A stretch of DNA of 64,000 bases from Spirochaetota bacterium (GCA_963664815.2 CAXXHB010000003.1:832001-896000); one strand, 5' to 3'; positions 1,079 through 42,245 are shown, counted from the first letter of the stretch. A program made the numbers and translations. The notes: generated from the sequence alone by a model not told the origin.

Positions 1079-1477
1079 ATGAAAATTGTAATTATACTTG
1101 ATGATAATCTTCCGGCAGGAGTGATGGCAAATACAGCTGCAGCTCTTGCCATGAGCTGTTCTCTTAAAATTCCGGGCATTGTAGGGGAGGATGTGCAGGA
1201 TGCCGATATGCAGATACACCCGGGACTTCTCACAACCCCTGTTGCGATCCTTTCTTCAAATGGGAAAAACCTTGTCAATTTAAAGAATGCAGCTGAAGCG
1301 GCGGATCTTGGTGTAATTGGTTTTACTGATATTGCAAGAAAATCGAGATCTTATAAAGATTATATTAAATTGATGTCTGCAGCAGGGGCAGGGGAGCTGA
1401 ATTATATTGGTATCTGTATATATGGCGAAAAAAGTAAAGTAACAGGTATAACGGGCGCTCTGCCGCTTGTGAAATAA
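1079..1477 (+). CDS. DUF2000 family protein
   Basis: KIVIILD..LP.G..ANTAAAL and YIGICIYG..V..ITG.LPL patterns; typical AraC neighbour. Confidence 0.75.
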   Translation: MKIVIILDDNLPAGVMANTAAALAMSCSLKIPGIVGEDVQDADMQIHPGLLTTPVAILSSNGKNLVNLKNAAEAADLGVIGFTDIARKSRSYKDYIKLMSAAGAGELNYIGICIYGEKSKVTGITGALPLVK

Positions 1478-1494
1478 ACAAAGGTGGTGAAAAA

Positions 1495-1821
1495 ATGTTT
1501 TCGAAGAAGAGTGAAGGGATATACAGGGATATGCTTCCCGGTATACAGATGCGTACTGCATCATATGGGGACAGGACTCTTATGAGCGAGTTTATTCTTG
1601 AAAAGGGATCTGCTCTGCCATCTCACAGTCATGTCCAGGAACAGACCGGTTATCTTGTTTCGGGGAGAATAACACTTAAAATCGACGGCAGAATTTATGA
1701 AACGTTCCCTGGCGACAGCTGGTGTGTTGAATCGGGGGTGGAACACTCTGCTGTTGCTCTGGAGAATTCAGTCGCAGTTGAGGTATTTTCACCGGTACGG
1801 GAGGATTATCTTCCGGGATAG
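1495..1821 (+). CDS. Cupin domain protein
   Basis: HSHVQEQTGYLVSG and VEHSA...VEVFSPVREDY motifs. Confidence 0.85.
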   Translation: MFSKKSEGIYRDMLPGIQMRTASYGDRTLMSEFILEKGSALPSHSHVQEQTGYLVSGRITLKIDGRIYETFPGDSWCVESGVEHSAVALENSVAVEVFSPVREDYLPG

Positions 1822-2282
1822 AATCCTGTATCATTAACATTTTCAGAGTGGAGAAAGAAATATCTTTTTTCAGGATAACTTTCCATGAGGAACATTTTTT
1901 ATAATATATAATGCTCTATTCTCACAGCCTCAAAGGGCGACTTTGATATCAAAACGTTTATTTTTACACTAAAATGTATATTAAGGAATTAGTAACTGAT
2001 ATATATTAAAAACCTTCATGTATTATATATAGGGTTTTAATGTATATGCGGTCGGATTTCGCATATATACAGAAACCAGTCATTTGCACGACTATCCTTC
2101 ATACAGCTTTTTTATTTGCGCTTTCCGGGAGCAGTGTGTCGCTGCTTAATTTTCATTTTTCTTGACATAAATTTCCATGTATGAAATTAGTCTCAGGAAT
2201 TAAGTTTACCCCTTATACCGGTTTAAACTTCATACCGGATCAGGAAACGCTTAAGTTAAATAAAATACTCTCCGGGATTGAG

Positions 2283-2492
2283 ATGAAAGGAAAAATTGAA
2301 ATAAACCAGGAACTATGCAAGGGGTGCGAACTCTGTATTCATTTTTGTCCGAAAAAGCTTATTACTCTTTCGGAAAATCTGAACAGGGCTGGTTATCTCC
2401 CTTCAGAATTTAAAGAGACTAAAGAATGTACCGGTTGCGCTACATGCGCAACGGTCTGTCCGGAAGTTGCAATAGAGGTGTATCGTGGCTAA
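2283..2492 (+). CDS. 2[4Fe-4S] ferredoxin, delta subunit of 2-oxoacid:ferredoxin oxidoreductase
   Basis: Two CxxCxxCxxxCP motifs; start placed at ATG 2283 (MKGKIEI); overlaps the alpha subunit. Confidence 0.88.
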   Translation: MKGKIEINQELCKGCELCIHFCPKKLITLSENLNRAGYLPSEFKETKECTGCATCATVCPEVAIEVYRG

Positions 2493-3555
2493 AGTACTTA
2501 TGACAGGAAATGCGGCAATCGCGGAAGCAGCAATCAGGGCTGGATGCCAATGTTATTTCGGTTATCCCATTACGCCGCAGAATGAACTCACAGAATACAT
2601 GGCTGCCAATTTAAGCCGAAGGCCGGGATGTACTTTTATCCAGGCTGAAAGCGAAATTGCAGCAATTAACATGGTCTATGGAGCCAGCGTAACAGGCGCA
2701 AGGGCTATGACATCATCGTCAAGCCCCGGGATAAGCCTGAAGCAGGAGGGGATTTCATACCTGGCGGCATGTCAGCTCCCTGCTGTTATAGTGAATATGT
2801 CAAGAGGGGGTCCGGGTCTCGGGTGTATATCAGCTGCCCAGTCGGACTATTTCCAGTCCACGCGCGGAGGGGGGCATGGAGATTACAGAACAGTTGTCCT
2901 CGCGCCGTCATCGGTACAGGAACTTGCCGATGCAACGCACAGAGCTTTTGAACTGACTGACAAGTACTCAATACCTGTACTGATTCTTGGCGACGGAATG
3001 CTGGGACAGATGATGGAGCCGGTTGAGTTCAGACATGAGGCGCCTGCCGTTCCGCCGGTGAGGGCAAATGGCCTCAGAGGGGCAAAGGGGCGGCCAAGCA
3101 GATTTATCCGCTCCTTTACATCCAATGCCTCAGAGCTTGAAGAGCTGAACTGGAGCCTCTACAGGAGGTATCAGCAGCTGCAGGAAGAGGAGACCACATG
3201 TGAAAACTTCATGACAGATGATGCTGCCCTTGTAGTCACTGCTTATGGTATTGCGGCGCGTATAGCAAAAGGAGCAATTACCAACGCCCGGTCTATGGGG
3301 ATGAAGGTCGGCATGTTCAGACCTGTAACACTCTGGCCTTTTCCGAAAGAACAGCTGAAGGACCTGTCAAAAAACACAAAGTATTTTCTGGATTTTGAAA
3401 TGAATATGGGCCAGATGATTGACGATGTTAAACTCTCGCTTGAAGGTAAAGGGGATGTTACCTTCTATGGAAGGCCCGGCGGTGTTATACCGACGTCATC
3501 CGAAGTTCTGCGCGTAATAACGCGTTTATATTACCAGAAAGGATTGAACAGTTAA
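2485..3555 (+). CDS. vorB: 2-oxoacid:ferredoxin oxidoreductase alpha subunit (VorB-like)
   Basis: YFGYPITPQNE, QAESEIAAINMVYGA, TSSSSPGISLKQEG motifs. Confidence 0.88.
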   Translation: MAKVLMTGNAAIAEAAIRAGCQCYFGYPITPQNELTEYMAANLSRRPGCTFIQAESEIAAINMVYGASVTGARAMTSSSSPGISLKQEGISYLAACQLPAVIVNMSRGGPGLGCISAAQSDYFQSTRGGGHGDYRTVVLAPSSVQELADATHRAFELTDKYSIPVLILGDGMLGQMMEPVEFRHEAPAVPPVRANGLRGAKGRPSRFIRSFTSNASELEELNWSLYRRYQQLQEEETTCENFMTDDAALVVTAYGIAARIAKGAITNARSMGMKVGMFRPVTLWPFPKEQLKDLSKNTKYFLDFEMNMGQMIDDVKLSLEGKGDVTFYGRPGGVIPTSSEVLRVITRLYYQKGLNS

Positions 3556-27488: not shown

Positions 27489-28118
27489 ATGAAAGAGATC
27501 AATATAAATAACTGGAAAAGAAAAGAACATTTCGCGTTTTTTTCAAGAATGGATTACCCGCATATTAATCTCTGCTTTAATGTTGATATAACATCCCTTA
27601 TCTCAAAAATAAAAGAGGAGAGATATCCCCTCTACTATACATTGATCTATCTTTCAACAATAAGCGCGAACCAGGTTGAAGAATTCCGGTACAGGATAAG
27701 AAATGAAAAAGTGGTACTTCATGAATTATTAACCCCTTCATTCTCGTATATGGATGATGGTAGCGACCTGTTTAAGATGGTAACTGTTGAGATGAGAGAG
27801 AGCCTTAAGGATTTTATTGATGATGCAAAGATCAAGTCGGCCTCACAGAAGGAATATTTTGTAGCCGGGGATTTTATTGACCGGGATGATTACATATTCT
27901 ATACCTCCATACCATGGATTTCATTTACCCATATATCCCATACCATAAACCTGAATAAAAACGATTCTGTTCCAAGAATATCCTGGGGTAAACATTTTGA
28001 AGACTCCTCGAGGATATGGCTCCCTTACTCGGTTCAGGTGAACCACTCCTTTGTTGACGGTATCCACATAGGAAAATTCAAGGAGGTTCTGGAGAGCAAC
28101 ATTGATAATTTTATGTAG
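27489..28118 (+). CDS. cat: CatA-type chloramphenicol O-acetyltransferase family protein
   Basis: W.RKEHF.FF, SIPWISFT, PRISWGK, catalytic VNHSFVDGIH. Confidence 0.85.
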   Translation: MKEININNWKRKEHFAFFSRMDYPHINLCFNVDITSLISKIKEERYPLYYTLIYLSTISANQVEEFRYRIRNEKVVLHELLTPSFSYMDDGSDLFKMVTVEMRESLKDFIDDAKIKSASQKEYFVAGDFIDRDDYIFYTSIPWISFTHISHTINLNKNDSVPRISWGKHFEDSSRIWLPYSVQVNHSFVDGIHIGKFKEVLESNIDNFM

Positions 28119-28402
28119 CAGAAGATATATGAAAGGATAAACACTGTCTATATAGTATATCTTCAGTAGTCTTTACCTCTCTGACCCCGCACACTTCGCA
28201 GCTCTCAGCTCAGTGCGGCGCTTACCCCGGGGGTACTTTGTCGCTACGCTCGGGCGCCCGGAAGGGGCAAAACATATTTTAACATATAAAATTTTTAAAA
28301 AATATGCTTGCCCCATGTCATTTGCTTTTCCGCACTGGTTATAGGAGACATAAGTTTCAATATAACGAGAAAATAATAATAATAAATAAGGAGTGTATAT
28401 CT

Positions 28403-28972
28403 ATGGCAAAAGTAAAGCTTCATCCCTATTTAAGAACTGCGCATGGCGGTCTGGATGGTCTTGTATTTTACAGACGCTATGGTAAAATCTATATTAAAGC
28501 ACGTACAATCCCATCAAACCCACGAACTGAACCGCAAGTGAAGTGCAGGGGTAATTTCGGCGGCGGCGTAAAGGCCTGGCAGGTTCTTCCGGATGAGGAG
28601 AAGGCTCTTTACAGAAACAGGGCAAAGAGGAAGAGAAAGTCAGGGTATAACCTTTTTATGTCTGAATACCTTCGCGGCATTGCACCTAGTTCACCTGTTA
28701 CTCCATCGGGAAATAGCGGAAAAGGGGATGCAGTGGTTGTATCCGCCTCCGGTGAAGCTGCAGAATATACATGCTGCTATTCAGGAAACAGCAGATCAGC
28801 AGATGGACAGAGTAATATTAATGCAGCAAAAGATAAAAGTAAATCTGCTAATACGGGACTTAAGCAGTATGAAAACGGTGTTAAAAACCGTTTCAATACC
28901 GTTTCAACACCGTTACCGGCAGAGAAAAACGCGCGTTTAAAGCTGTATGCATCGTGTTTGAGGCGGAATTGA
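28403..28972 (+). CDS. Basic putative DNA-binding protein (G..VFY...NPRT..Q...W..L...EK..Y...SGYNLF) with low-complexity tail
   Basis: AAGGAG RBS before ATG 28403; Arg/Lys-rich ~95-aa core. Confidence 0.6.
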   Translation: MAKVKLHPYLRTAHGGLDGLVFYRRYGKIYIKARTIPSNPRTEPQVKCRGNFGGGVKAWQVLPDEEKALYRNRAKRKRKSGYNLFMSEYLRGIAPSSPVTPSGNSGKGDAVVVSASGEAAEYTCCYSGNSRSADGQSNINAAKDKSKSANTGLKQYENGVKNRFNTVSTPLPAEKNARLKLYASCLRRN

Positions 28973-28993
28973 AGTGAAATTGAAGCGAAACTG
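28871..28993. repeat. Degenerate 11-bp period repeat arrays
   Basis: AAAACCGTTTC/AATACCGTTTC/AACACCGTTAC (28884-28916) and AGGCGGAATTG/AAGTGAAATTG/AAGCGAAACTG (28961-28993). Confidence 0.55.
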
Positions 28994-29166
28994 ACTTTTC
29001 TGTAAAGAGAGTCGGGATTTTGTCTTAAATCTGTCCTGTTATTACATCTGAATTGTCTGATGTCCGACCTGAGAATGTTCGTGCAGGGTATTTCTGTACG
29101 CATAAAATCATGCCAATCCCTTAATAGATTAAAGACTCCTCTCCCGCTCGACGCTGACGCTGGAGC

Positions 29167-29643: not shown

Positions 29644-30354
29644 ATGCCTAAAAAAGAACCGGACTTAAAACCATCCAGAAAGACAAATACAAATGCCGCC
29701 AATATCGGCTTTGAAGAAAAGCTGTGGCTCGCTGCTGACAAGATGCGGAACAATATGGATCCCGCGGAGTACAAGCATACTGTGCCGGGACAGCTGTTTT
29801 ATTCAACAGGTATACCGGTATCGCTATGGTTTGTAAACCGCAACAAGGAGAACCCCAGGTTCAGAAGCAGAAAGGGAGAGACTCTGTTTATTGACGCACG
29901 GAAGATGGGGGCTCTGATTGACAGGGTTCACAGGGAGCTTTCTGATGAGGATATTAAGAGGATTGCGGGGGCGTATCATGCGTGGAGGGCTTCGACTCCG
30001 CTCAACCAGCGTAATGGAACTGAACAGTTAGTTTCGGCTCCGCTCAACCAGCGTAATGGAACTGAACAGTTAGTTTCGGCTCCGCTCAATGACCACGGAG
30101 CCGAAGGGTGCAGTTCGGACTACACTGATGTTCCCGGCTTCTGCAGGTCTGTTAAGATTGAAGAGATTCGGGAACATGAATATATTCTTACACCTGGCAG
30201 GTATGTTGGGATTGAAGAGAAGGCTGATGACGGGGAACCTTTTGAAGAGAAGATGCAGAGGCTCACAGAGGAGCTTGAGGAACAGTTTGTTAAGAGTGAG
30301 CATCTGGATAAGAGGATAAGGGAGAATTTGAAGGGGATTGGGTTTGAGGTGTGA
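29644..30354 (+). pseudogene. hsdM: Type I R-M methyltransferase HsdM with large in-frame internal deletion
   Basis: N-terminus (GFEEKLWLAADKMRNNMDPAEYKH) fused directly to C-terminal part (PGQLFYSTGIPVSLWF...LTPGRYVG...DGEPFEEKMQRL); no DPxCGSG SAM motif or NPPF motif. Confidence 0.88.
29990..30106 (+). repeat. In-frame 42-bp tandem repeat carrying REP-like TTCGRCTCCGCTCA
   Basis: Units start at 29991, 30033, 30075 (partial); closed by inverted CGGAGCCGAAG at 30096; encodes S(T/A)PLNQRNGTEQLV twice. Confidence 0.88.
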
Positions 30355-30403: not shown

Positions 30404-32797
30404 ATGGAAGATAAATTATATAATTATTTAAAAAAAGTATACAATGACCAGCTTAAAGAGAATAAACTTTTAAGACTTTTTATAACAACATGGAGTAGTT
30501 TGAAAACCTCATATGTTGAAACAGATCAATTAAAAGGTGCCGATTTATACAATATTGTTAATAAATTATATGAAGGATATATTCCACAAACATCTTTAAC
30601 CAAAGATGAAAGTAGTTTATTATTTCCTGATGAACAACTAAATTCAGCTAATGATTATAGATGTAAATATATTTTTCTAACAAATACTAGAGGAATCGGA
30701 GATTATAAAAATGAACAACCCTATGGTATCAGTTTATTAAAAGATAAAGCCATTCAGAATGCTGTAATCATTGGGCATAATGGCTCTGGCAAATCTTCAA
30801 TTTTTTCAGCAATGGAATATATTTATTGCAATGATCAAATCGGAGAAAAGTTATATCGAAATTATAAAGAAAGCAGTATAAGATATCTGGAAAATGAAAT
30901 AACAAAAAAAAGTTCAAATGTAGAGATTTCAACACCAAGTGGTATTTTTTCATTAAAGAACAAAATTTCAGATATTGAAGAAGTCTCAAATACAAATCCT
31001 TCAGTTTCATTCATAAGCGAGTATGATATACTTATTAATTCACAAATAGAAATTAATGATGACAGTTATACAATTGAGATAGCTAGAAAACTTGGATTTA
31101 TTGATTTTACAAATTTTAAAACTAATCTTGATGCAATAATAAAATACCAGTTTAATCGAAGTACTAAAAGTACTGATTATAAGAAAGCAGTTGATAAGTT
31201 AAAAACAATTGAAGCAAGTATTAACAGGATTACAAATGAAATAGAAACACTTAGTTCAAAAATTTCTTCATATACTCTTGATAATTATAATAATGATTTC
31301 TCTAAAAAGATAAATGAGATTGATGAATTGATTAATAAACAAATTAACTTACCTGATATTAATACAATTAAAAAGAATGGTGATGAATTTATAAAATTTT
31401 TTGAACAACTTAATCTAATTAAAAATAATACTCAGAGAACTTTAGAATCAGCAAAAGTCGATTTTCTACAACATGGTTTACAATTTCTTGAAGTTGAAAA
31501 AAACTGTCCATTCTGTTCAGATTCAAGAAAAGATTACCAGGTTATAAAGACTGAAGTAAATGAAACTATTATTTCATATAAAGATTATACAAAATTAAAT
31601 GAAGAAGTAAAGCAATACTTTGAAAATACAGTTCATAAACTTATTTACTTATTAGATTCTCTTAGAATAATTTTAGAAATATTTGATACGGAAATATATT
31701 TTCCAGTTAATGAAGAATTAAATGCACATTACAAAGTTTTATTAAACGATGTGAACACGATTATAGGAATAATACCTTATGATGAAATTTTGGAAGAATT
31801 ACATTCTATTAAAGGTAATGGCTTTATTGAAAATGATAGAAATAAATTATTAGATTTAATTCAACAATTTGGTGAAAACCTATTTGCTGAAAGTTATTAT
31901 GCTGAGATTAGAAATAAAATAAGCTCCAGAGATATTCTTTTAAAGGAAATCAAGGACGGTTTATTGAAAAAGTCTGCCGTGCGTGGATATGATGAAAAAA
32001 TAACTACTGAACTAGTTTTAAAACAAAAAAGAGATGAATATGATAATCTCTTAAAAGAAAAGGTAACTAATGAAGATAAAAAAAATATTGGTTTACGAGA
32101 TTTAGAAATTCATTCTGAGATTATTAAGGAAGCAAAAATATTATTAGAAGAAGTTGGTGCATATATTGATTCGATAGTTGAGGATAGAATTGAACCAATA
32201 AAAGAAGTTATTACTAATGCTATGGATGATTTTCTTGATGATGGTATGAAGCTAAGTATATCATTCAAAGATGTGGAGTATGGAGAATCTATTTCTAAAA
32301 AATTAGAAATTAAATTAAAATATAATAATACAGAAATTGATCCAAAAAAGTATTTCAATAATGCAAGATATAAAATGTTTGCTACTTCACTTGCTATAGG
32401 GATTGCTCTTGCTTCAAGAAGAAATACTAATATTAACCTGCCTCTTGTTATGGATGACGAATTCTTTGATTGTGATATAATTAAACGATCAGAATTTGAA
32501 ATATTTTTTTCAAAAATAATTGAATTATATTTTAAATTTTCACCTGATATGCCATTTCAATTTATAATATTTACCCACGACGAATTAATTTTCGAAAGTA
32601 CAGCCAAAGCTGTTGAAAATGCAAGTTGTGAAATTCAAAGAATGATACATGATAAAAAGATTGAATCCCATGAATATTGGAAAAATAATTTAAGAGACAA
32701 TACTATATTTGCTCGATTGTTTGATTACAAGGATAGTGATTCAACGGTTAAGATAGTAAATGATAATAAATACTGGGATCTTACAGTAGAATTATAA
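30404..32797 (+). CDS. SMC/Rad50-like ABC ATPase (RloC/AAA_13-like) with zinc hook
   Basis: Walker A GHNGSGKSS, coiled coils around CPFC, Walker B LVMDD, H-loop IIFTHD. Confidence 0.8.
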   Translation: MEDKLYNYLKKVYNDQLKENKLLRLFITTWSSLKTSYVETDQLKGADLYNIVNKLYEGYIPQTSLTKDESSLLFPDEQLNSANDYRCKYIFLTNTRGIGDYKNEQPYGISLLKDKAIQNAVIIGHNGSGKSSIFSAMEYIYCNDQIGEKLYRNYKESSIRYLENEITKKSSNVEISTPSGIFSLKNKISDIEEVSNTNPSVSFISEYDILINSQIEINDDSYTIEIARKLGFIDFTNFKTNLDAIIKYQFNRSTKSTDYKKAVDKLKTIEASINRITNEIETLSSKISSYTLDNYNNDFSKKINEIDELINKQINLPDINTIKKNGDEFIKFFEQLNLIKNNTQRTLESAKVDFLQHGLQFLEVEKNCPFCSDSRKDYQVIKTEVNETIISYKDYTKLNEEVKQYFENTVHKLIYLLDSLRIILEIFDTEIYFPVNEELNAHYKVLLNDVNTIIGIIPYDEILEELHSIKGNGFIENDRNKLLDLIQQFGENLFAESYYAEIRNKISSRDILLKEIKDGLLKKSAVRGYDEKITTELVLKQKRDEYDNLLKEKVTNEDKKNIGLRDLEIHSEIIKEAKILLEEVGAYIDSIVEDRIEPIKEVITNAMDDFLDDGMKLSISFKDVEYGESISKKLEIKLKYNNTEIDPKKYFNNARYKMFATSLAIGIALASRRNTNINLPLVMDDEFFDCDIIKRSEFEIFFSKIIELYFKFSPDMPFQFIIFTHDELIFESTAKAVENASCEIQRMIHDKKIESHEYWKNNLRDNTIFARLFDYKDSDSTVKIVNDNKYWDLTVEL

Positions 32798-32806
32798 GGA
32801 GATAGT

Positions 32807-33865
32807 ATGAATCTTGCAAATACTGAAATTGAGCAATCAGATACAGCAATAAAAAAAGGTAGGGATTGGAAAATAATCGGATTCTGGTATCTTATCATAA
32901 TTAATGCTATAATGCTATTAACTCTAGTTTTTTATTTTCAAATAAAAGTAAAAGATTGGGTCAGCGAAATCAAACCACAAATTAATGATCTTAATAATTC
33001 ATATATTGATTTATACTATAAATATTCACGTGTAGATGATATTGAAAAAAATCAACAGCAATTCTATGTGATGCAAAAAAAGGATTTAGAGGAGATTAAA
33101 TCGTTAATACTGTATATTAAAACTGATAATGATAAGATGTCTGAAAGAATTAGTCAAGAAACTTCAACCATAGTTGATAAGGTAAATTTATATGTTTCAA
33201 TAGCTGTAGTCTTATTAACACTTATAGGAATATTTATACCTCTTATAGTTCAAAATATGGGAAATCATCAGATTCAAGAGAAATATGATGAACTTAAAAA
33301 AGATTTTGGTGAAAAAAATAACAAAATTTCAAAGTTAGACAAACAATTAGTGAATTTATCTAAAAGTTATAAAGAGATTGATGCAAAGACGGAACATGTA
33401 GATGAACTTAATGAAAAAATAAAAGTGCAGGAAGTCACTGTAAGTGATATAGAAAACAATTTGAAACAACTTCCTCCTGTACGTATTATGTTTTACCTGC
33501 ATAAGGTTTTAGACCTCAATGATATTAGGTATTATTCACAATCAATGAAAACTACATACGAATATTTTTTAACAATTATTAATAGTATTAAGTGTGATAT
33601 TGAAAAATGTAAAGAAACTAAAGTTGCGAGTGATGATAGCGTTTTGTTGCAAAGTTTGAATTCTTTTATTATTGATTGTAAGTCAATCAAAGTTTATGGT
33701 TATACACGTTCTGCAATTACAATATTAAAATCATTGGAAGAAGCTTTTAGTATTTTTATTCAAAATGAGATAGTTGAAGATGAACAAAAATACAACTTAC
33801 TAATATTGTCTCTTGAAAATACTATTTCAAAATTAAATGAAGTCGTGTTTGATGATCTTTTATAA
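32807..33865 (+). CDS. Hypothetical 2-TM coiled-coil membrane protein
   Basis: Two hydrophobic helices (aa ~22-45 and ~128-148) followed by heptad-rich region; very AT-rich. Confidence 0.7.
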   Translation: MNLANTEIEQSDTAIKKGRDWKIIGFWYLIIINAIMLLTLVFYFQIKVKDWVSEIKPQINDLNNSYIDLYYKYSRVDDIEKNQQQFYVMQKKDLEEIKSLILYIKTDNDKMSERISQETSTIVDKVNLYVSIAVVLLTLIGIFIPLIVQNMGNHQIQEKYDELKKDFGEKNNKISKLDKQLVNLSKSYKEIDAKTEHVDELNEKIKVQEVTVSDIENNLKQLPPVRIMFYLHKVLDLNDIRYYSQSMKTTYEYFLTIINSIKCDIEKCKETKVASDDSVLLQSLNSFIIDCKSIKVYGYTRSAITILKSLEEAFSIFIQNEIVEDEQKYNLLILSLENTISKLNEVVFDDLL

Positions 33866-33989
33866 AATCAAGTTGTGATTAATAAAAGTTTAATTGGAGT
33901 TAATATGTTATTAAGATGTTGTAATATAATAGAAAAAGATAAATATATATAAAAAGCAAGTTGATTGAAATTGATTAAGGACTAAATTT

Positions 33990-34862
33990 ATGGATACAAT
34001 GTTAACACATGGAAATTATGGTTTCGCAAAAATGTATATATCAAATCTCCAGGGTGAAAACGGATTAGGTTTTTACAGGCTTATTATAAAAACAAAAATC
34101 TTTTGGAATGAACGACTTGATGAGATGCTTGTAAGACTTTCTGATTTAAATGGTGAATTATTTATAACATTTCCAAATGGTGATCGTAAATATGTAGGTC
34201 GTGTTCATTACCAATTATCTCAATCTGAACTAAAAAGTAAGACAAATTCATATGACGATTATTTAAATTTTGAAATAGAATTTGATAGAACTAGAATTGA
34301 AGCAATAGAAGATGGTCGAAAAGGATCTGATTTCAATTTCGAATTTAAAATGAAGGCAAGAGGTTTAATTCAAAATGACTCCAGATTAATTGAAGCAACA
34401 CTAAACTATCAAGTTAATCAAAGCGCATGGATTCAAGTACTAAGAGAGATGAATTATAAAAAAATGTTGTTACTTGAAATCCCTTTAGAAATGGATGATA
34501 ATTCAGAAACAATGAAGGATGTTGTTGGATATTTAAAAGAGGCTCAGAATTTTTTTGTAAATGGAAAGTATAGGGATTCTATTGGTTCATGCCGTGATGT
34601 ATTAGAATCATTAACTAATGTCATTGGTGATGAGAAACTACAATTGCCAGATGAAATTAAAACATTTTTTAATCATTCAAAAGATATGGATAAGTCTGAA
34701 CGAATTAAGATCTTACATCGGGCAATAAAAACGTTAACACATCCAGCACGTCATGTTGATGAGGTTTCTAAGAGCTTTGATTGGAATATGACTGATTCGA
34801 GATCAATTCTGGCTATGACTGCTTCTTTGATACAGATGAGTTTAGAAGATAATGTTAAATAA
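33990..34862 (+). CDS. Hypothetical protein with C-terminal HEPN-like domain
   Basis: Beta-rich N-terminus; C-terminal YLKEAQ...DSIGSCRDVLESL...LTHPARH helical pattern. Confidence 0.6.
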   Translation: MDTMLTHGNYGFAKMYISNLQGENGLGFYRLIIKTKIFWNERLDEMLVRLSDLNGELFITFPNGDRKYVGRVHYQLSQSELKSKTNSYDDYLNFEIEFDRTRIEAIEDGRKGSDFNFEFKMKARGLIQNDSRLIEATLNYQVNQSAWIQVLREMNYKKMLLLEIPLEMDDNSETMKDVVGYLKEAQNFFVNGKYRDSIGSCRDVLESLTNVIGDEKLQLPDEIKTFFNHSKDMDKSERIKILHRAIKTLTHPARHVDEVSKSFDWNMTDSRSILAMTASLIQMSLEDNVK

Positions 34863-36294
34863 AGATATGAATTGGAAAGAAATTGAACTAGATGAAGTTG
34901 GTGATATCGTAACAGGAAAAACACCATCCACAGGAGATATTGATAATTTTGGTAGGATTTATCCTTTCATAACACCAAAAGACATGACTGGCCAGAAATA
35001 CATCTTTGAAACTGAAAGATATCTTTCAGAGAAAGGGATGAAAGCGGTTAAGAATTGTTTAATAAATAAAAATGCAGTTTGTGTATCATGTATTGGTTCA
35101 GATATGGGTAAAGTTGTGATGGCAACAAAACCGAGTGTTACTAATCAACAATTAAATTCAATTAAGGTTAATAATAAATATAATCCAGATTTCATTTATT
35201 ACTCATTATATCAAATAAGTAAAGATTTAAGGAATGCCGCATTTCATTCGACAGCATTACCTATTTTAAATAAAACGCAATTCTCGAAATTTAGGATAAT
35301 GGAACCCCCTCTCCCTGAACAACGCGCAATAGCAGAAATCCTGTCATCCATTGACGACAAAATAAAATTGAACAACCAGATGAACCGAACCCTCGAAGCA
35401 ACAGCACAGGCCATATTCAAACAGTGGTTTGTAGACTTCGAGTTTCCCTTCGACTTCGCTCAGGGCAAGCTCTTCGACTTCGCTAGGGAGGACAAGCCAG
35501 TAACCCAGACTTCGGCTCCACGGTTGGTGAGCTTGTCGAACCACAGCCAACGTAGTGACACAAAAAAGAAGAGTTCAGATACACAACGCTCATTGAGCGG
35601 AGTCGAAATGAGCGAGTTCATGGCCGGCTACAAATCCTCCGGCGGTAAAATGATCGACAGCGAACTTGGACCGATACCGGAAGGGTGGAGAATAAAAACA
35701 TTATATGAATTTGGTGAATACATAAATGGGCTTGCATTTAAAACAGATGATTTTTGTGAACCAATTGAAGGGTTGGCAATAATAAAAATTGCTGAATTAA
35801 AAAATGGAATACAGTCAAGTACTCAATTTACAAAAAGAGTAGTGGATGAAAAGTATTATCTATATGATAAAGATATTCTGTTTAGCTGGTCAGGTAGTCC
35901 TAATACATCGATAGATATATTTATCTGGAGTTTGAATAAAGCAATCTTGAATCAGCATATTTTTAAAGTAGTACCAAACTCATCGGATGAGTATTCATTC
36001 TTGTTTTTATTACTAAAATATTTTAAACCAATATTTATTCAAATTGCCAGTCAAAAGCAAACTACAGGCTTAGGTCATGTTACTATTACTGATTTGAAAA
36101 GATTAAAATTTGTTTATCCGAATGAAGAGCTAATTAAATTTTTTAATGAAAGTGTTAATAATATATTATCCAAAATTTTTTATAACAATAAAGAGATCCA
36201 AACCCTCTCCACCCTCCGTGACTCTCTCCTCCCAAAACTGATGTCAGGGGAACTGCGTGTACCGGAAGAGATAGTAGCAGGATTTACAAAATAA
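34852..36294 (+). CDS. hsdS: Type I R-M specificity subunit HsdS (intact, with REP-derived linker insertion)
   Basis: Two TRDs, PPLPEQRAIAEILSSIDDKI, LEATAQAIFKQWFVDF, SELGPIPEGW, LRDSLLPKLMSGE. Confidence 0.93.
   Translation: MLNKDMNWKEIELDEVGDIVTGKTPSTGDIDNFGRIYPFITPKDMTGQKYIFETERYLSEKGMKAVKNCLINKNAVCVSCIGSDMGKVVMATKPSVTNQQLNSIKVNNKYNPDFIYYSLYQISKDLRNAAFHSTALPILNKTQFSKFRIMEPPLPEQRAIAEILSSIDDKIKLNNQMNRTLEATAQAIFKQWFVDFEFPFDFAQGKLFDFAREDKPVTQTSAPRLVSLSNHSQRSDTKKKSSDTQRSLSGVEMSEFMAGYKSSGGKMIDSELGPIPEGWRIKTLYEFGEYINGLAFKTDDFCEPIEGLAIIKIAELKNGIQSSTQFTKRVVDEKYYLYDKDILFSWSGSPNTSIDIFIWSLNKAILNQHIFKVVPNSSDEYSFLFLLLKYFKPIFIQIASQKQTTGLGHVTITDLKRLKFVYPNEELIKFFNESVNNILSKIFYNNKEIQTLSTLRDSLLPKLMSGELRVPEEIVAGFTK
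35446..35610. repeat. REP-like palindromic cluster inserted in frame in hsdS
   Basis: CTTCGACTTCGCTCAGG, CTTCGACTTCGCT, TTCGGCTCC, TGAGCTTGTCGAA, TGAGCGGAGTCGAA. Confidence 0.8.
36198..36285 (+). repeat. 88-bp direct repeat copy 1 (hsdS 3' end)
   Basis: Matches 37027-37114 with one difference. Confidence 0.92.
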
Positions 36295-37841: not shown

Positions 37842-38810
37842 ATGATAAAAACATTAAAAATAAATAACTTCAAATCGATCCGGTCACTTTCTCTCGATTG
37901 TAAAAGAGTAAACCTTTTTATTGGCGAACCGAATACAGGTAAATCAAATATTCTTGAAGCATTTGGCTTGATAAACTATTTTAGTGATACAAATTTCAGA
38001 GAGCTAAAAGATTATGTAAGATTTGAGAATATACATAATCTCTTTTATGACAGCATTGTAGATGAACCTATTCAAGTTGTTATAGCGGATGATAAAGAAT
38101 ATGAAGTTAAGATAAAAAATTATGAAAATAGGTTTGATGTGTTTTTAACTGATTCAGCAAATGCTGTTTGCTCATTTGAAAGTAAGGGCAATTTTACAGG
38201 AAGTAGAACATATGGGAATAGAAAAGATATTTTATATTATAAATATAATAAAAATGCAGTTATAAGTCAGGGATTTTCTAATAAACTTGCAACACCTTCT
38301 GGTGATAATTTATTCATGACAGCTTATTCAACTAAAGAAAATCGTGAAATGATTTCAAATCTATTTAAATCATACGGGTTAAAAGCAATCTTTAAACCTC
38401 AGGATAACACAATTGAAATTCAGAAACAACAGGATGATGTTGCAGTATCATATCCTTACAGTATGACATCCGATACACTCCTTCGAATTATATTCTACAT
38501 GCTTGCAATAAAGTCAAATAAAGATGCAACCCTAGTATTTGAAGAGCCCGAAGCTCACGCATTCCCGTATTATACAAAACATCTCGGTGAAGTGATCGCT
38601 GCTGATACATCAAATCAGTATTTTATAGCGACACATAATCCATATCTACTTAATGCGATAGTTGAAAAAGCAAAAATCGAAGATGTCAATGTTGTAGCTG
38701 TTTACTATGAGGATTACCAGACAAAAATTAAACAGCTCTCTGAGATAGATATTGCAGACCTTCTTGAACAGGACCCGTTCCTTGCAATAGATCATTTTAC
38801 AGGCAAGTAG
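37842..38810 (+). CDS. ABC-type ATPase (AAA_15/AAA_21, OLD/AriA-like)
   Basis: IKTLKINNFKSI, GEPNTGKSNILEA, LVFEEPEAH, FIATHNPY. Confidence 0.88.
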   Translation: MIKTLKINNFKSIRSLSLDCKRVNLFIGEPNTGKSNILEAFGLINYFSDTNFRELKDYVRFENIHNLFYDSIVDEPIQVVIADDKEYEVKIKNYENRFDVFLTDSANAVCSFESKGNFTGSRTYGNRKDILYYKYNKNAVISQGFSNKLATPSGDNLFMTAYSTKENREMISNLFKSYGLKAIFKPQDNTIEIQKQQDDVAVSYPYSMTSDTLLRIIFYMLAIKSNKDATLVFEEPEAHAFPYYTKHLGEVIAADTSNQYFIATHNPYLLNAIVEKAKIEDVNVVAVYYEDYQTKIKQLSEIDIADLLEQDPFLAIDHFTGK

Positions 38811-38813
38811 ATT

Positions 38814-39296
38814 ATGGCCATATCTGTTGAATGTAATGCCGATGAAAAGCTGGTAAAACTGCTTCTTTCAGAAGAAGTTGAAACCCTGCATCAGAATGGC
38901 AGGGGAAATATTCTGAATCATCTAAGAAAGAAATCTACCATGTCTGGTATAGGGTTAATTGATGAAGATCCCGGCAGCGCGCATACCAGGGATTTTGTCA
39001 GTTCTTATGTAGAAGTTGAAAGCGTTGGTAATGTTAAAAGGTTTTCCCGTAAAGACAATAATAATATTACCATAGTAATGCTTTCTCCACGACTTGAAGA
39101 GTGGATTATATCCCGTGCTTCAGATTCCGGGATTAAAATGTCCGATTATTCATTGCCTGATGACGGTATTAAGCTCCATGACAGATATCATTATGAAAAA
39201 GAAGATAATTTCACTTCCCTGATAAACAAACTCATCGAACTGAAAGATAAAGAAATCCTAACTGTAAAAAAATGGCTCTCTGGAGACAATCCATGA
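38814..39296 (+). CDS. Small TOPRIM-like protein, partner of the ATPase
   Basis: SVECNAD (conserved E), GLIDED (DxD), PRLEEWII; starts 3 bp after the ATPase stop. Confidence 0.6.
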   Translation: MAISVECNADEKLVKLLLSEEVETLHQNGRGNILNHLRKKSTMSGIGLIDEDPGSAHTRDFVSSYVEVESVGNVKRFSRKDNNNITIVMLSPRLEEWIISRASDSGIKMSDYSLPDDGIKLHDRYHYEKEDNFTSLINKLIELKDKEILTVKKWLSGDNP

Positions 39297-39768
39297 ACCT
39301 CTTCACCGAAGCCACACTCGAACAGGCAGCCCTTTCATGGTTTGAATCCCTTGGGTATAGTATAATATTCGGTCCAGATATCGCCTGTGACGGTGATTCT
39401 CCTGAAAGGTCAAACTACGGTGAGGTTGTAATCGAAGGCCGTTTAAGGGACGCTCTATCCCGGATAAATAAAAAAGTTCCAGCCTCTGCAGTTGACGATG
39501 CGATACGAAAAATACTTATAACAGAAAGCCCGTCGTTAATAATTAATAACAGAAACTTTCAGAAAATGATAACTGACGGTATTGATGTTCAGTTCAACAG
39601 ACCCGATGGAAGTGTTAAGACGGATAAGGTTTATCTCTTCGACTTTTAAAATGCGGATAACAACGACTGGGCTACTGTAAACCAGCTCGTTTCAAAGTCA
39701 ATAATATCCGAAGAGGTCATTGACATTTTACGGAGCCATAAAAGCGAAGCCCCTTAAAAAAGCCGGAT
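39293..39768 (+). pseudogene. hsdR: Type I R-M restriction subunit HsdR remnant (nonsense codon plus large internal deletion)
   Basis: N-terminus MNLFTEATLEQAALSWFESLGY...; TAA at 39647; continues NADNNDWATVNQ then jumps to C-terminal-type LVSKSIISEEVIDI and (shifted) LKKPD; no DEAD helicase core. Confidence 0.85.
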
Positions 39769-39842: not shown

Positions 39843-41963
39843 ATGCGTAACAGAAGGATTGTAGTCTATATGTTAATTATTGTTGTTGTTCTTATCGGTT
39901 TTAATGGGACAAAAGAAATAATTTTAGGGAATGAAGCCACAGATACAAAATTGACAGAATTACTTGGAAAGTATACAGAATTAACAAAGGAAAGAGATGC
40001 CATTGCCAAGCAATCAAATAACATTATCATCAGTGAAGCTATATCTGAAAATGATAAACATACGCCTATTTATAAAAAAACAATAGATAAATCAGATAAA
40101 AAATATTTATATAGATCTTTAGCTTCTATCGGTGATACAGATGCAATGATAAATGAACTGTTCGGCATAATGGCGGAAGTTGCTGTTGATAAAGCAAAGA
40201 GTAATACACTGAATATAGTTATAAAAAAGATTCAAAAAGCCTTTAATCAGAAAGAATTAGGTTCAAATTTCCCGGCGACAAAAAGAATCGTCGATTCTCT
40301 TACCGTATCCACCCTTTCATCTTCAAGTCAGTCACTTGTTAACGCACTGGTTATAGATTGTGGTTCTATAATGGAAAAATACATTTCAGTTAATAACACG
40401 TATGGAGCAGTTAGTTCCAGGGATATAGAATTGCTTTTTAAATTATTTTATTCAACCATAATGGATGGGAAGAATGACCCTGTAGATTTAATGAACAGCT
40501 TTGCAATGATTAAATGGAGCAATGATAAAATAAATATAATTCTAATTGCAGTAAGAACATTTGAAAAGATGCCTGATGTCTCACCAGAAGAGATGATTGG
40601 TTATATAGATGATATTATAGATAATTATAATTCTTATTGTATTAAAAATGGTAAAGTAACAGTTAGTACAAATATAATAAATAGATCTGAGTTGCTGATG
40701 ATACTTAGAAGCTATGATAAAGCTGTCAGGAATGGGGCAGTGTACACAAGTTCATCCGGGGAGAAATTAAGGTTAAAAGAGCTTTCTGATCTGTACTTTT
40801 CAATGCTGAGAATAATTATGAATGATGAAGATAAATGCAATATTTACATCAACACCATGGAGAGATTGATAAACGCAAGAATTCAAAATAACAATCAGGA
40901 GTTTGTCACGGCAATATTTGATATTATTGAACTGACACTTAAAGACAAAGGTTATTTTGGTTTTAAACAAAGCTTAAAACAGATAAATGATCAACTGGAT
41001 GACATTAATGAACGGATTTTGGGATGTAAAAGCGAAAATGATAAAAAAGCTGTTATCGAAGTACTTAAGAATTGCAAGGGAAATTTAAAGGACATTGAGG
41101 AGAATGCCGAATCAGCATATAAAGATTATAATAAAAGTGATCTGAATAATTATAAGGAGCTTTATGGTTCATATAGTAAAAAATATGAAAGCATACAAAA
41201 AAACATCAAAACATTAAAAGATAATATTATAATTCTTAAAGGTGTTCTTAATATAGACCATTGTTTGGACTCAGAAGAAAATATTAAAATTGGTTTATTG
41301 ATAGATTCGATCGATGGTAAAATTACGGAGTGGGATAATAAGTTAGAGAAATATATAGCTTTTTATAATTCAGAGATTGGTATGGTTATAAAGAGATTTA
41401 AAAGAATAAAACCTCTGGTCAACGCTGCAGTTGCCTATACGGCAACTTACTCAAGCGATCAAACAGATGAAAAGGATTTGAAAGAATCCAGAAAACAGAT
41501 TGTTGAAAATCTTATAACCGAGACAGCGAACAGGTACGAGAGATATGATGAATGGATATTCTCAATAGGTATTAATACAGGTTTTATGTTCCCCGGACAT
41601 ACAAAAGATGGCTGGAATTTTTATCCACCGCAGGTAAGTCTTCCTCTTGGTTTTTACTTGCAGTCTATGCCTGAAGAAAATTCAGGATTTTCGTTAGGTC
41701 ATATCGGTTTGTATTTTTTTGATCTTGGGCAATATGTTTTTTATGACAAGAACAGTGATGTTAAAGAGGCATCATGGAAAAATGCTTTTACGCTGGGAAT
41801 GCAATTGGGTTTTTTCATTTTCAGTTCACCCGATATGTTATTTAACGCAGGAATTGATGTCAGGTATTCACCTGCTCTTCATACTGAGGGGGAAAAGAGA
41901 CGGGATGATATCTGGGCTGGCGTCTATTGTTCTTACTATGTGCCGTTTTTTGATTTTAATTAA
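39843..41963 (+). CDS. Large exported hypothetical protein; helical/coiled-coil body with beta-rich C-terminus
   Basis: 706-aa ORF, N-terminal signal/TM, aromatic beta-strand-like C-terminus ending YYVPFFDFN. Confidence 0.65.
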   Translation: MRNRRIVVYMLIIVVVLIGFNGTKEIILGNEATDTKLTELLGKYTELTKERDAIAKQSNNIIISEAISENDKHTPIYKKTIDKSDKKYLYRSLASIGDTDAMINELFGIMAEVAVDKAKSNTLNIVIKKIQKAFNQKELGSNFPATKRIVDSLTVSTLSSSSQSLVNALVIDCGSIMEKYISVNNTYGAVSSRDIELLFKLFYSTIMDGKNDPVDLMNSFAMIKWSNDKINIILIAVRTFEKMPDVSPEEMIGYIDDIIDNYNSYCIKNGKVTVSTNIINRSELLMILRSYDKAVRNGAVYTSSSGEKLRLKELSDLYFSMLRIIMNDEDKCNIYINTMERLINARIQNNNQEFVTAIFDIIELTLKDKGYFGFKQSLKQINDQLDDINERILGCKSENDKKAVIEVLKNCKGNLKDIEENAESAYKDYNKSDLNNYKELYGSYSKKYESIQKNIKTLKDNIIILKGVLNIDHCLDSEENIKIGLLIDSIDGKITEWDNKLEKYIAFYNSEIGMVIKRFKRIKPLVNAAVAYTATYSSDQTDEKDLKESRKQIVENLITETANRYERYDEWIFSIGINTGFMFPGHTKDGWNFYPPQVSLPLGFYLQSMPEENSGFSLGHIGLYFFDLGQYVFYDKNSDVKEASWKNAFTLGMQLGFFIFSSPDMLFNAGIDVRYSPALHTEGEKRRDDIWAGVYCSYYVPFFDFN

Positions 41964-42055: not shown

Positions 42056-42245
42056 TGAGCCTGCCGAATTACATGAACAGCACCATTCGACTCCGCGGTT
42101 GGTGAGCCTGTCGAACTACAGGGAGCGTGGTGTACATAAATTTTAGATAGTTCACTCAAGCACCGCTCGTTGAGCGGAGTCGAAACGGGAAAGCTCTTTC
42201 GTGCACCGCTCGTTGAGCGGAGTCGAAACGAGCATGTTCACTCAA
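42056..42245. repeat. REP-like cluster (same family as the hsdM/hsdS insertions)
   Basis: TTCGACTCCGCGGTTGGTGAGCCTGTCGAAC at 42086; GCACCGCTCGTTGAGCGGAGTCGAAACG at 42160 and 42203. Confidence 0.8.

Follow-up and report, generated by a model that had tools for sequence, protein, structure and literature searches.

A conserved gene pair for a Rad50-like ATPase and a putative membrane protein, next to a separately conserved gene with a predicted HEPN-like domain, in a dead type I restriction-modification operon of a Spirochaetota bacterium

In a 64,000-nucleotide stretch of the genome of a Spirochaetota bacterium (GCA_963664815.2, CAXXHB010000003.1:832001-896000; hereafter the window), an AT-rich block at 30404-34862 carries three genes in a type I restriction-modification (R-M) operon. 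Gene 1 encodes a Rad50/LmuB-type coiled-coil ABC ATPase, gene 2 a putative protein with two transmembrane (TM) segments, and gene 3 a protein with a predicted HEPN-like C-terminal domain. An earlier note on this DNA, made from the sequence alone, had proposed that the three genes form one defence system. We found that genes 1 and 2 are conserved together as a unit, and that gene 3 belongs to a different one: no relative of gene 3 occurs with the pair, and no relative of the pair occurs with gene 3, at any other locus surveyed. On balance we favour reading the block as a composite of two independent units, genes 1-2 and gene 3, inside a dead type I R-M operon, with the pair probably Lamassu-like.

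Genes 1 and 2 are a conserved pair

We scanned one genome per species and obtained nine loci with a relative of gene 1 (L001-L009; ten with the window), in Bacteroidota, Ignavibacteriaceae and one Faecalimonas metagenome-assembled genome. In all nine, the gene-1 homologue is followed on its strand by a gene that overlaps it or begins no more than a few bases from the homologue's stop codon; in the window, gene 2 starts after a gap of 9 bp. The downstream partner has 282-461 amino acids (aa), and L007, a contig of 2.6 kb, shows only its start. The nine aligned partner proteins, the window's included, all have two hydrophobic segments, one N-terminal and the other 85-160 residues further on. Searching with gene 2 of the window, tblastn matched five of the nine loci at the partner position (L004, L002, L001, L007 and L006; E 4e-8 to 8e-5), and blastp with SEG filtering and composition correction linked it to seven of the eight full partners, all but that of L009, with E-values that refer to a database of nine sequences and are hence generous. 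A hidden Markov model (HMM) built from the nine partner proteins found the L007 fragment, which lay outside its training set, at 5e-12.

R-M genes adjoin the pair in 5 of the 10 loci. The window has it beside type I R-M genes; type III Mod and Res genes start 6 bp after gene 2 in L002; a complete type I hsdM/S/R set and a gene for an HD-CE/HATPase protein stand directly upstream in L003; L005 has genes for a type IIG enzyme, a helicase, a T5orf172 protein and an HD-CE/HATPase protein upstream; and L008 has a type III-like methylase upstream. L004 carries transposases on both sides and a fragment resembling PD-Lambda-2_B, and its pair is followed only by a transposase gene on the opposite strand. 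The genes upstream of the pair vary between loci, and those that follow it differ from locus to locus.

Some of these neighbourhoods showed further organization. In two Marinilabiliaceae genomes, L003 (7359-9773 and 13578-16130) and L005 (7224-9737 and 13575-16070), a protein of ~800 aa with HD-CE and HATPase_c_3 domains precedes the pair and one of 830-850 aa without annotation follows it; in this lineage the pair may belong to a larger conserved module. In L001 (13311-15289), genes for a 348-aa protein without a family and a 311-aa Ion_trans_2 channel protein overlap the 3' end of the pair, pointing to an operon of four genes that encodes a further membrane component.

Gene 3 is conserved apart from the pair

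A metagenome scan for relatives of gene 3 gave 73 loci, many of them on contigs shorter than 2.5 kb without an informative neighbour. The nearest neighbours on each side (113 proteins) were classified with Pfam at E<=1e-5. In 8 of the 73 loci (L013, L014, L016, L017, L018, L020, L021 and L022), an N6_Mtase gene lies directly upstream of the gene-3 relative and a Methylase_S gene directly downstream, and at least one of the two is a nearest neighbour in 13 of the 73; tblastn added hsdM or hsdS pieces in L024, L026, L029 and L035. Distant relatives of gene 3 adjoin genes for SIR2, TIR, GmrSD, DUF4145, RES, N6_N4 methylases, KilA-N, integrase and resolvase. No gene-3 relative was found at the nine pair loci (tblastn, and HMM at E<=1), and neither gene 1 nor gene 2 was found at the 73 gene-3 loci by tblastn or HMM.

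These results bear directly on the proposal of a single three-gene system, in which an SMC-like sensor would act with a membrane effector and/or a HEPN RNase. The three genes share a strand, all are AT-rich, genes 1 and 2 are spaced by 9 bp and genes 2 and 3 by 124 bp, and gene 3 has a predicted HEPN-like fold, all of which would be expected of such a system. However, the co-occurrence across genomes by which the earlier note had suggested checking it was seen for genes 1 and 2, at 9 of 9 loci, and not for the triad, which was found together at no other locus surveyed. In addition, the closest gene-3 relatives stand alone between hsdM and hsdS in the eight loci named above, and the pair is followed by variable genes. 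We regard a single three-gene system as very improbable.

Proposed insertion of the pair as a cassette

Since none of the other loci surveyed combines gene 3 with the pair, we propose that genes 1 and 2 entered as a foreign cassette, and that the type I R-M operon which received them had gene 3 in place beforehand. Among the relatives, hsdM ends ~30-45 bp before gene 3, and in the window this gap holds a cassette of ~3.6 kb (Table 1). The simplest history is that an hsdM-gene 3-hsdS operon later received genes 1 and 2. As judged from their GC content, 0.253 for gene 1 and 0.259 for gene 2 (0.25-0.26, against 0.395 for the whole window), and from the absence of gene 1 from 400 of 400 other sampled genomes of the phylum, genes 1 and 2 were probably acquired horizontally. 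The block between the hsdM remnant and hsdS has a GC content of ~25-30%; the spacer between genes 2 and 3 is at 0.185, gene 3 at 0.304 and hsdS itself at 0.353.

We found no convincing direct or inverted repeats flanking the cassette, only AT-rich chance matches. Gene 3 occurred in none of 40 other genomes of the same family, so that no cassette-free site was seen among them. Contigs of four runs contain the same locus with a gene-1 relative that is ~94% identical, and no form without the cassette. Neither gene 1 nor gene 3 gave a tblastn match in plasmid and phage collections, and viral contigs gave one weak partial match to gene 1.

Gene 1 is a Rad50-like ATPase with altered catalytic motifs

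Gene 1 has an N-terminal extension of ~80 aa, followed by the motifs listed in Table 1, which are mostly conserved in its family. Canonical Rad50 has a Walker B motif of the form hhhhDE and an LSGG-type signature motif. The Walker B motif of gene 1 is hhhhDD, with an aspartate where the catalytic glutamate is expected, and its signature motif is replaced by YFN..RY. Only 72 residues follow the histidine of FTHDE, with no further domain. Across 71 aligned members of the family, D84, R86, N126, K130, E138, E148, R152 and G231 are invariant, as are C368, P369, C371, N652, P680, D684, D685, D691 and Q719, and H725 is conserved in at least 90%.

A Rad50-type zinc hook dimerises the ATPase, and an altered Walker B motif slows hydrolysis. 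Gene 1 probably dimerises through its CPFC zinc hook. Since the Walker A lysine and the Walker B aspartate are invariant but the DD pair and the signature are altered, it should still bind ATP but turn it over slowly, and so work as a switch and not as a motor. Within aa 255-640 of gene 1 the hook lies off-centre, ~110 residues after the N-terminal head and ~210-250 before the C-terminal head. One coiled-coil arm would therefore be longer in sequence than the other, and this points to an additional helical insert or to folding points.

An exhaustive phmmer search gave a family of 427 representatives at E<=1e-3, 256 at E<=1e-10 and 72 at E<=1e-30, with the best members mostly of 760-840 aa; a word-indexed search with gene 1 returned one relative only. 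Distant, shorter relatives (56 aligned) keep the D.R, Walker A, Y.NTFRFK, hhhhDD and FTHDE blocks, and their consensus has no conserved cysteine pair. The Pfam models SMC_N, AAA_23 and AAA_21 match 25, 17 and 10 of 58 family members, respectively, below threshold. Compared with PDB sequences, the gene-1 profile retrieved only the Walker A stretches of SMC3, Rad50 and retron PtuA together with coiled coils, and gene 1 as a single sequence retrieved nothing relevant among solved structures. No curated family in Pfam, NCBIfam or PADLOC (2023) names gene 1, and scans with NCBIfam and PHROGs gave nothing useful for genes 1-3. The family may already be named in the ABC ATPase classification of Krishnan et al. 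2020.

Gene 2 is a predicted inner-membrane protein

Hydropathy analysis identified two hydrophobic segments in gene 2 (Table 1). The first is preceded by a basic stretch, KKGRDWK. Under the positive-inside rule a basic flank lies on the cytoplasmic side, so the basic N-terminus suggests that both termini of gene 2 are cytoplasmic. Gene 2 would be an inner-membrane protein with its N-terminus inside, two TM helices, and a cytoplasmic coiled coil and helical bundle. Its structural model was all-alpha, with a predicted local distance difference test score (pLDDT) of 63 overall and of 72-87 over the last ~100 residues. Foldseek searches of PDB with this model returned nothing at E<=0.001 and only generic four-helix bundles at E>=0.12. 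The Atlas returned only unnamed Bacteroidota clusters, and a word-indexed homologue search with gene 2 found only itself. We also predicted a complex of gene 1 (residues 1-797) with gene 2 (residues 150-352); its score of 0.22, against a mark of 0.32, is evidence neither way.

Gene 3 is predicted to combine a beta-sandwich with a HEPN-like domain

The gene-3 family comprises 66 clusters of ~290 aa proteins, including Gammaproteobacteria and, in the Atlas, Actinomycetota. An AlphaFold model of gene 3 from a 34-row alignment (pLDDT 83.7) has two domains, a beta-sandwich and a helical bundle (Table 1). With Foldseek only the sandwich was matched, to ApaG-like and Ig-like domains at E 4e-5 and weaker. 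We compared residues 160-290 with 48,161 chains using VIA-align, and the top five were all HEPN proteins, with 102-119 aligned residues: AF_0298 (2hsb, Z 10.7), ST0689 (1wol, 9.6), LsoA (5hy3, 9.6), TT1696 (1ufb, 9.6) and the sacsin HEPN domain (9.4). RnlA, AbiV, SO_3166 and Csm6 appeared lower in the list. We call the C-terminal domain HEPN-like because HEPN entries fill the top of the list, and not because of the Z-scores. On the strength of this model, gene 3 appears to have a HEPN-like fold in its C-terminal domain.

Three results count against this assignment. A Z-score of ~10 is within the chance range for helical bundles, and by the tool's own note values below ~13 are not decisive. No Pfam family, the HEPN-clan models included, matched gene 3 at E<=0.01. 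Finally, the conserved residues are compatible with the HEPN motif, defined as Rx4-6H in PMC3710099, and give no clean match to it. The conserved blocks are CRDVLE (aa 201-206) and T250-H251-P-A-R254-H255-x-D257, and K235, R238 and H255 are invariant in the family. In the window's gene 3, position 243 is a histidine, and R244 to H251 reads Rx6H; the family's near-invariant arginine is at 243 (x7) and its invariant histidine is H255. The nearest named cluster in the Atlas is DUF4145, at a score of only 0.75, and the gene-3 profile found nothing among PDB sequences.

Several HEPN families are embedded in R-M operons, foremost PrrC, whose gene stands in a type I operon, as described in PMC3710099. 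Gene 3 resembles PrrC in its place inside an hsd operon and in its predicted HEPN-like C-terminal domain. PrrC and RloC, which are anticodon nucleases, combine an ABC ATPase and a HEPN nuclease in one polypeptide, whereas gene 3 has a beta-sandwich N-terminal domain and no P-loop, gene 1 has no HEPN domain, and neither protein combines both. By analogy with PrrC, gene 3 is most likely an RNase or RNA-binding protein that is linked to R-M and serves as a second line. The idea that genes 1 and 3 are a split PrrC was rejected, as the two do not co-occur at the other loci surveyed. In one gene-3 locus, L071 (5738-7618), a distant gene-3 relative is followed by a gene for a 626-aa AAA_21/SMC_N ABC ATPase; as the gene-1 family HMM does not match this ATPase, it is no relative of gene 1.

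Genes 1 and 2 compared with Lamassu and Rad50 systems

Scans with Pfam, PADLOC and NCBIfam gave no complete match of the block to a named system, in agreement with the earlier note, and in the PADLOC check that it had suggested gene 1 gave only weak matches to LmuB models. However, gene 1 shares with long LmuB proteins the three traits listed for them in PMC12663957, where they average ~800 aa, have an hhhhDD Walker B motif and always carry one CxxC hook: it has 797 aa, LPLVMDD and a single CPFC. It is also found among defence genes, as Lamassu is. In Lamassu, LmuB sequesters the C-terminal domain of the effector near the hook, and sensing of DNA ends leads to oligomerisation of the effector (PMC12663957 and bioRxiv 10.1101/2025.03.14.643221). 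The pair differs from Lamassu in that the ATPase gene comes first, unlike the order lmuA-lmuC-lmuB, that the partner is a two-TM coiled-coil protein without an enzymatic domain, and that no LmuA or LmuC is detectable at the pair loci. LmuA models matched nothing in the window block or among the neighbours scanned at the nine related loci, and LmuC models matched nothing in the window or the nine loci, in a scan of open reading frames (ORFs) from 90-120 aa upwards. The word 'transmembrane' is absent from the main texts of the Lamassu structure papers searched, a weak sign that a variant with a membrane partner is not described there.

By analogy with Lamassu, the pair is probably a Lamassu-like module for defence in which the effector would act at the membrane, and we consider a defence role for it rather probable in itself. 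We infer that the two proteins would be in physical contact, that gene 2 would act as a membrane effector and that gene 3 would have RNase activity. A more specific model can be put forward tentatively, and with a good deal less confidence than the defence role. The gene 1 dimer would hold gene 2 inactive by its cytoplasmic part, the bundle or the coiled coil. Gene 2 would then be released or rearranged when foreign DNA ends or structures are bound and ATP drives the heads to engage. Once freed, gene 2 would oligomerise in the membrane and damage it, and the infection would be aborted.

Several observations weigh against this reading of the pair, and some of them favour alternatives. The first group concerns the LmuB models. 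Gene 1 matches the PADLOC model PDLC03859 at only 1.1e-7, and another protein of this genome, of 949 aa, matches it better (1.3e-16). Among 58 family members PDLC03859 matches 51 (best 6.2e-20) and PDLC03865 matches 45 of 58, which could indicate that genes 1-2 are a true member of Lamassu, a long-Lamassu derivative in which gene 2 replaces LmuA and LmuC. Gene 1 has the three long-LmuB traits, and PMC12663957 reports that some Lamassu clades have lost LmuC or the effector domain. However, at E<=1e-10 PDLC03859 had matches in 102 of 301 genomes, and in 11 of 14 control genomes it picked up ordinary Rad50/SMC-type proteins, whereas true LmuB proteins score 4e-126 and 1e-66. PDLC03865 gave four weak matches in the 301 genomes, the best at 2e-35. 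Since PDLC03859 matches the controls as well, the LmuB matches of gene 1 show likeness to Rad50/SMC proteins and not membership. Together with the lack of LmuA and LmuC matches and the ATPase-first gene order, this makes true membership unlikely.

The second group concerns the partner. No enzymatic, catalytic or pore domain was recognisable in gene 2 by Pfam or by fold search with a poor model (pLDDT 63), and the downstream protein of L009 resembles gene 2 in position and topology only. Other effectors are possible, given the overlapping genes in L001, which include that for the ion-channel protein. As the main alternative to an effector, gene 2 could be a membrane anchor that places a DNA-end sensor, while neighbours, either R-M enzymes or the variable downstream genes, kill or cut. 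The R-M genes beside half of the ten loci, the L001 genes, the conserved 830-850-aa protein after the pair in L003 and L005, and a gene 2 that lacks such a domain would all fit this. However, the downstream genes are not conserved across loci, the L004 pair has only an opposite-strand transposase after it, and the R-M partner in the window is dead. We consider an anchor role rather unlikely, and continue to prefer a membrane effector.

The third group concerns the sample, which consists of nine related loci, with L003 and L005 close relatives of each other. No defence gene was recognised near the pair in L001, L006 and L009, and the L007 contig is too short for a verdict. These four of the nine loci would be consistent with a pair that is non-defensive, a membrane-tethered Rad50-like machine for DNA repair, uptake or transfer. 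Gene 1 shares with Rad50/SbcC the coiled-coil ABC ATPase architecture and the zinc hook, and its profile matches the heads of SMC3 and Rad50 around Walker A. In contrast to Rad50/SbcC, its Walker B motif ends in DD and not DE, its signature is YFN..RY, it carries the N-terminal extension, and its hook is nearer in sequence to the N-terminal head than to the C-terminal one. Pfam scans of the window and the related loci found no Mre11/SbcD-type phosphoesterase among the neighbours of the pair, as a nuclease partner. The pair is also sporadic and rare in the phylum, foreign to its host in GC content, and inserted in or beside R-M loci and transposases, and its catalytic motifs are degenerate. A non-defensive role therefore seems quite unlikely, and a Lamassu-like module is the reading that we retain.

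The block lies in a decayed type I R-M operon

The description of the block in the earlier note was largely borne out. All three ORFs are intact and on one strand in an AT-rich block; gene 1 has the length, N-terminal extension, hook, degenerate signature (YFNNAR, within KYFNNARY) and short sequence after the H-loop that had been read from it; gene 2 begins where stated and has its two TM segments; and gene 3, besides its HEPN-like tail, overlaps hsdS, by 11 bp. The block had also been placed between hsdM and hsdS, which is correct for hsdS, present at full length, but not for hsdM, of which a remnant without the methyltransferase core is left. In this remnant, Pfam N6_Mtase matches at profile positions 213-310 only and HsdM_N at 2-31, and tblastn with the 526-aa HsdM of L021 aligned only residues ~6-50 and 375-522. 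A frame translation of the remnant contains an in-frame tandem mini-repeat, and the central region of hsdS has a mini-repeat insert, likewise in frame. The hsdR piece matches HSDR_N (6.6e-14) at profile positions 2-104 of 198 only, and no helicase or nuclease part of hsdR lies downstream of it within the window. With an hsdM that lacks its catalytic core and an hsdR of 125 aa, hsdS alone being full length, the components of a functional type I R-M system are incomplete, and the system at this locus is dead.

The interval from hsdS to the hsdR piece contains genes for DUF2442 and PD-(D/E)XK_3 proteins and for an AAA_15 ATPase with a 160-aa partner. The decayed hsd genes, the additional defence-type genes and the ordinary genes on either flank make the region of ~28.2-42.0 kb look like a defence island on a dead type I R-M operon.

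Table 1. Positions of the genes, motifs and other features in the window
Feature	Position	Strand	Details
Gene 1	30404-32797	+	797 aa; translated ORF
Gene 1, Walker A GHNGSGKSS	30773-30799		aa 124-132
Gene 1, zinc hook CPFC	31505-31516		aa 368-371
Gene 1, KYFNNARY at the ABC signature position	32348-32371		aa 649-656
Gene 1, Walker B LPLVMDD	32438-32458		aa 679-685
Gene 1, FTHDE (H-loop)	32570-32584		aa 723-727
Gene 2	32807-33865	+	352 aa; translated ORF; predicted all-helical, with two TM segments, external loop of ~88 aa, cytoplasmic coiled coil and C-terminal helical bundle of ~100 aa
Gene 2, first hydrophobic segment	32873-32929		aa 23-41
Gene 2, second hydrophobic segment	33194-33250		aa 130-148
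Proposed cassette	30355-33989		genes 1 and 2
Gene 3	33990-34862	+	290 aa; translated ORF
Gene 3, beta-sandwich	33990-34424		residues 1-145; from the model, strands to residue 142
Gene 3, HEPN-like helical bundle	34494-34859		residues 169-290; from the model, helices 173-289
Gene 3, THPARH	34737-34754		
hsdM remnant	29644-30354	+	N-terminal ~45 and C-terminal ~150 residues of HsdM joined; methyltransferase core deleted
hsdS, type I specificity subunit	34852-36294	+	full length; Pfam Methylase_S 4.4e-41; PADLOC Specificity_I 1.1e-93
hsdR N-terminal fragment	39272-39649	+	125 aa; Pfam HSDR_N
Chloramphenicol acetyltransferase	ends 28118		ordinary flanking gene, left side
Enoyl-CoA hydratase	starts 42531		ordinary flanking gene, right side
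High-depth stretch	28000-29000		
222-aa ORF	28304-28972		within the high-depth stretch
Mini-repeats	29980-30130		in the hsdM remnant
Mini-repeats	35447-35544		in hsdS
Mini-repeats	near 42089-42129		
ATPase and 160-aa protein	37842-39296		between hsdS and the hsdR piece
706-aa ORF	39843-41963		directly after the hsdR piece

Other features of the region were also recorded. The mini-repeats are short and GC-rich. Contigs of other runs omit 96 or 40 nt within hsdS at its mini-repeat, and across the mini-repeat sites they skip 96, 40 or 140 nt; some contigs join 35521-35547 to 42089-42129. These skips and joins indicate that the mini-repeat element is repeated and polymorphic. The ATPase between hsdS and the hsdR piece has 322 aa (AAA_15/AAA_21) and matches the PADLOC models HEC-01A (4.9e-22), NsnB (1e-20) and AriA (3.9e-17). 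It is tightly linked to its 160-aa partner, which has no family match, and the two resemble another defence cassette that has entered this hsd operon. The 706-aa ORF has a GC content of ~0.30-0.32 and no match in Pfam, PADLOC, NCBIfam or PHROGs. At 28000-29000, contig depth in three runs is 15-80 times that of the adjoining DNA (270-440 in run X1 and 1270-3140 in X3, against ~11-60), with many variant letters. The raised depth and the variant letters point to a high-copy repeat or mobile element; its 222-aa ORF has no family match.

Implications

The locus exemplifies how other defence cassettes can settle in a type I R-M operon that is itself in decay. The gene-1 family, which would gain a name if the pair is defensive, has none in Pfam, NCBIfam or PADLOC (2023); it comprises at least 72 deeply divergent clusters, and 427 once looser relatives are counted. 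Gene 3 represents an unnamed, widespread family in the niche of PrrC, between hsdM and hsdS, and may be another back-up to restriction. A joint reading would make genes 1-2 a new Lamassu-like abortive-infection system that acts by a membrane lesion, and would make gene 3 the founder of a group of PrrC-like guardians of type I R-M systems in which a HEPN RNase is joined to an Ig-like sensor in place of the ABC ATPase; by analogy this is conceivable, but we think it somewhat unlikely in all its parts. If the pair is defensive, the principle of Rad50 and Lamassu, that a DNA sensor of SMC type keeps a toxic partner under control, would extend to a membrane effector encoded after the ATPase.

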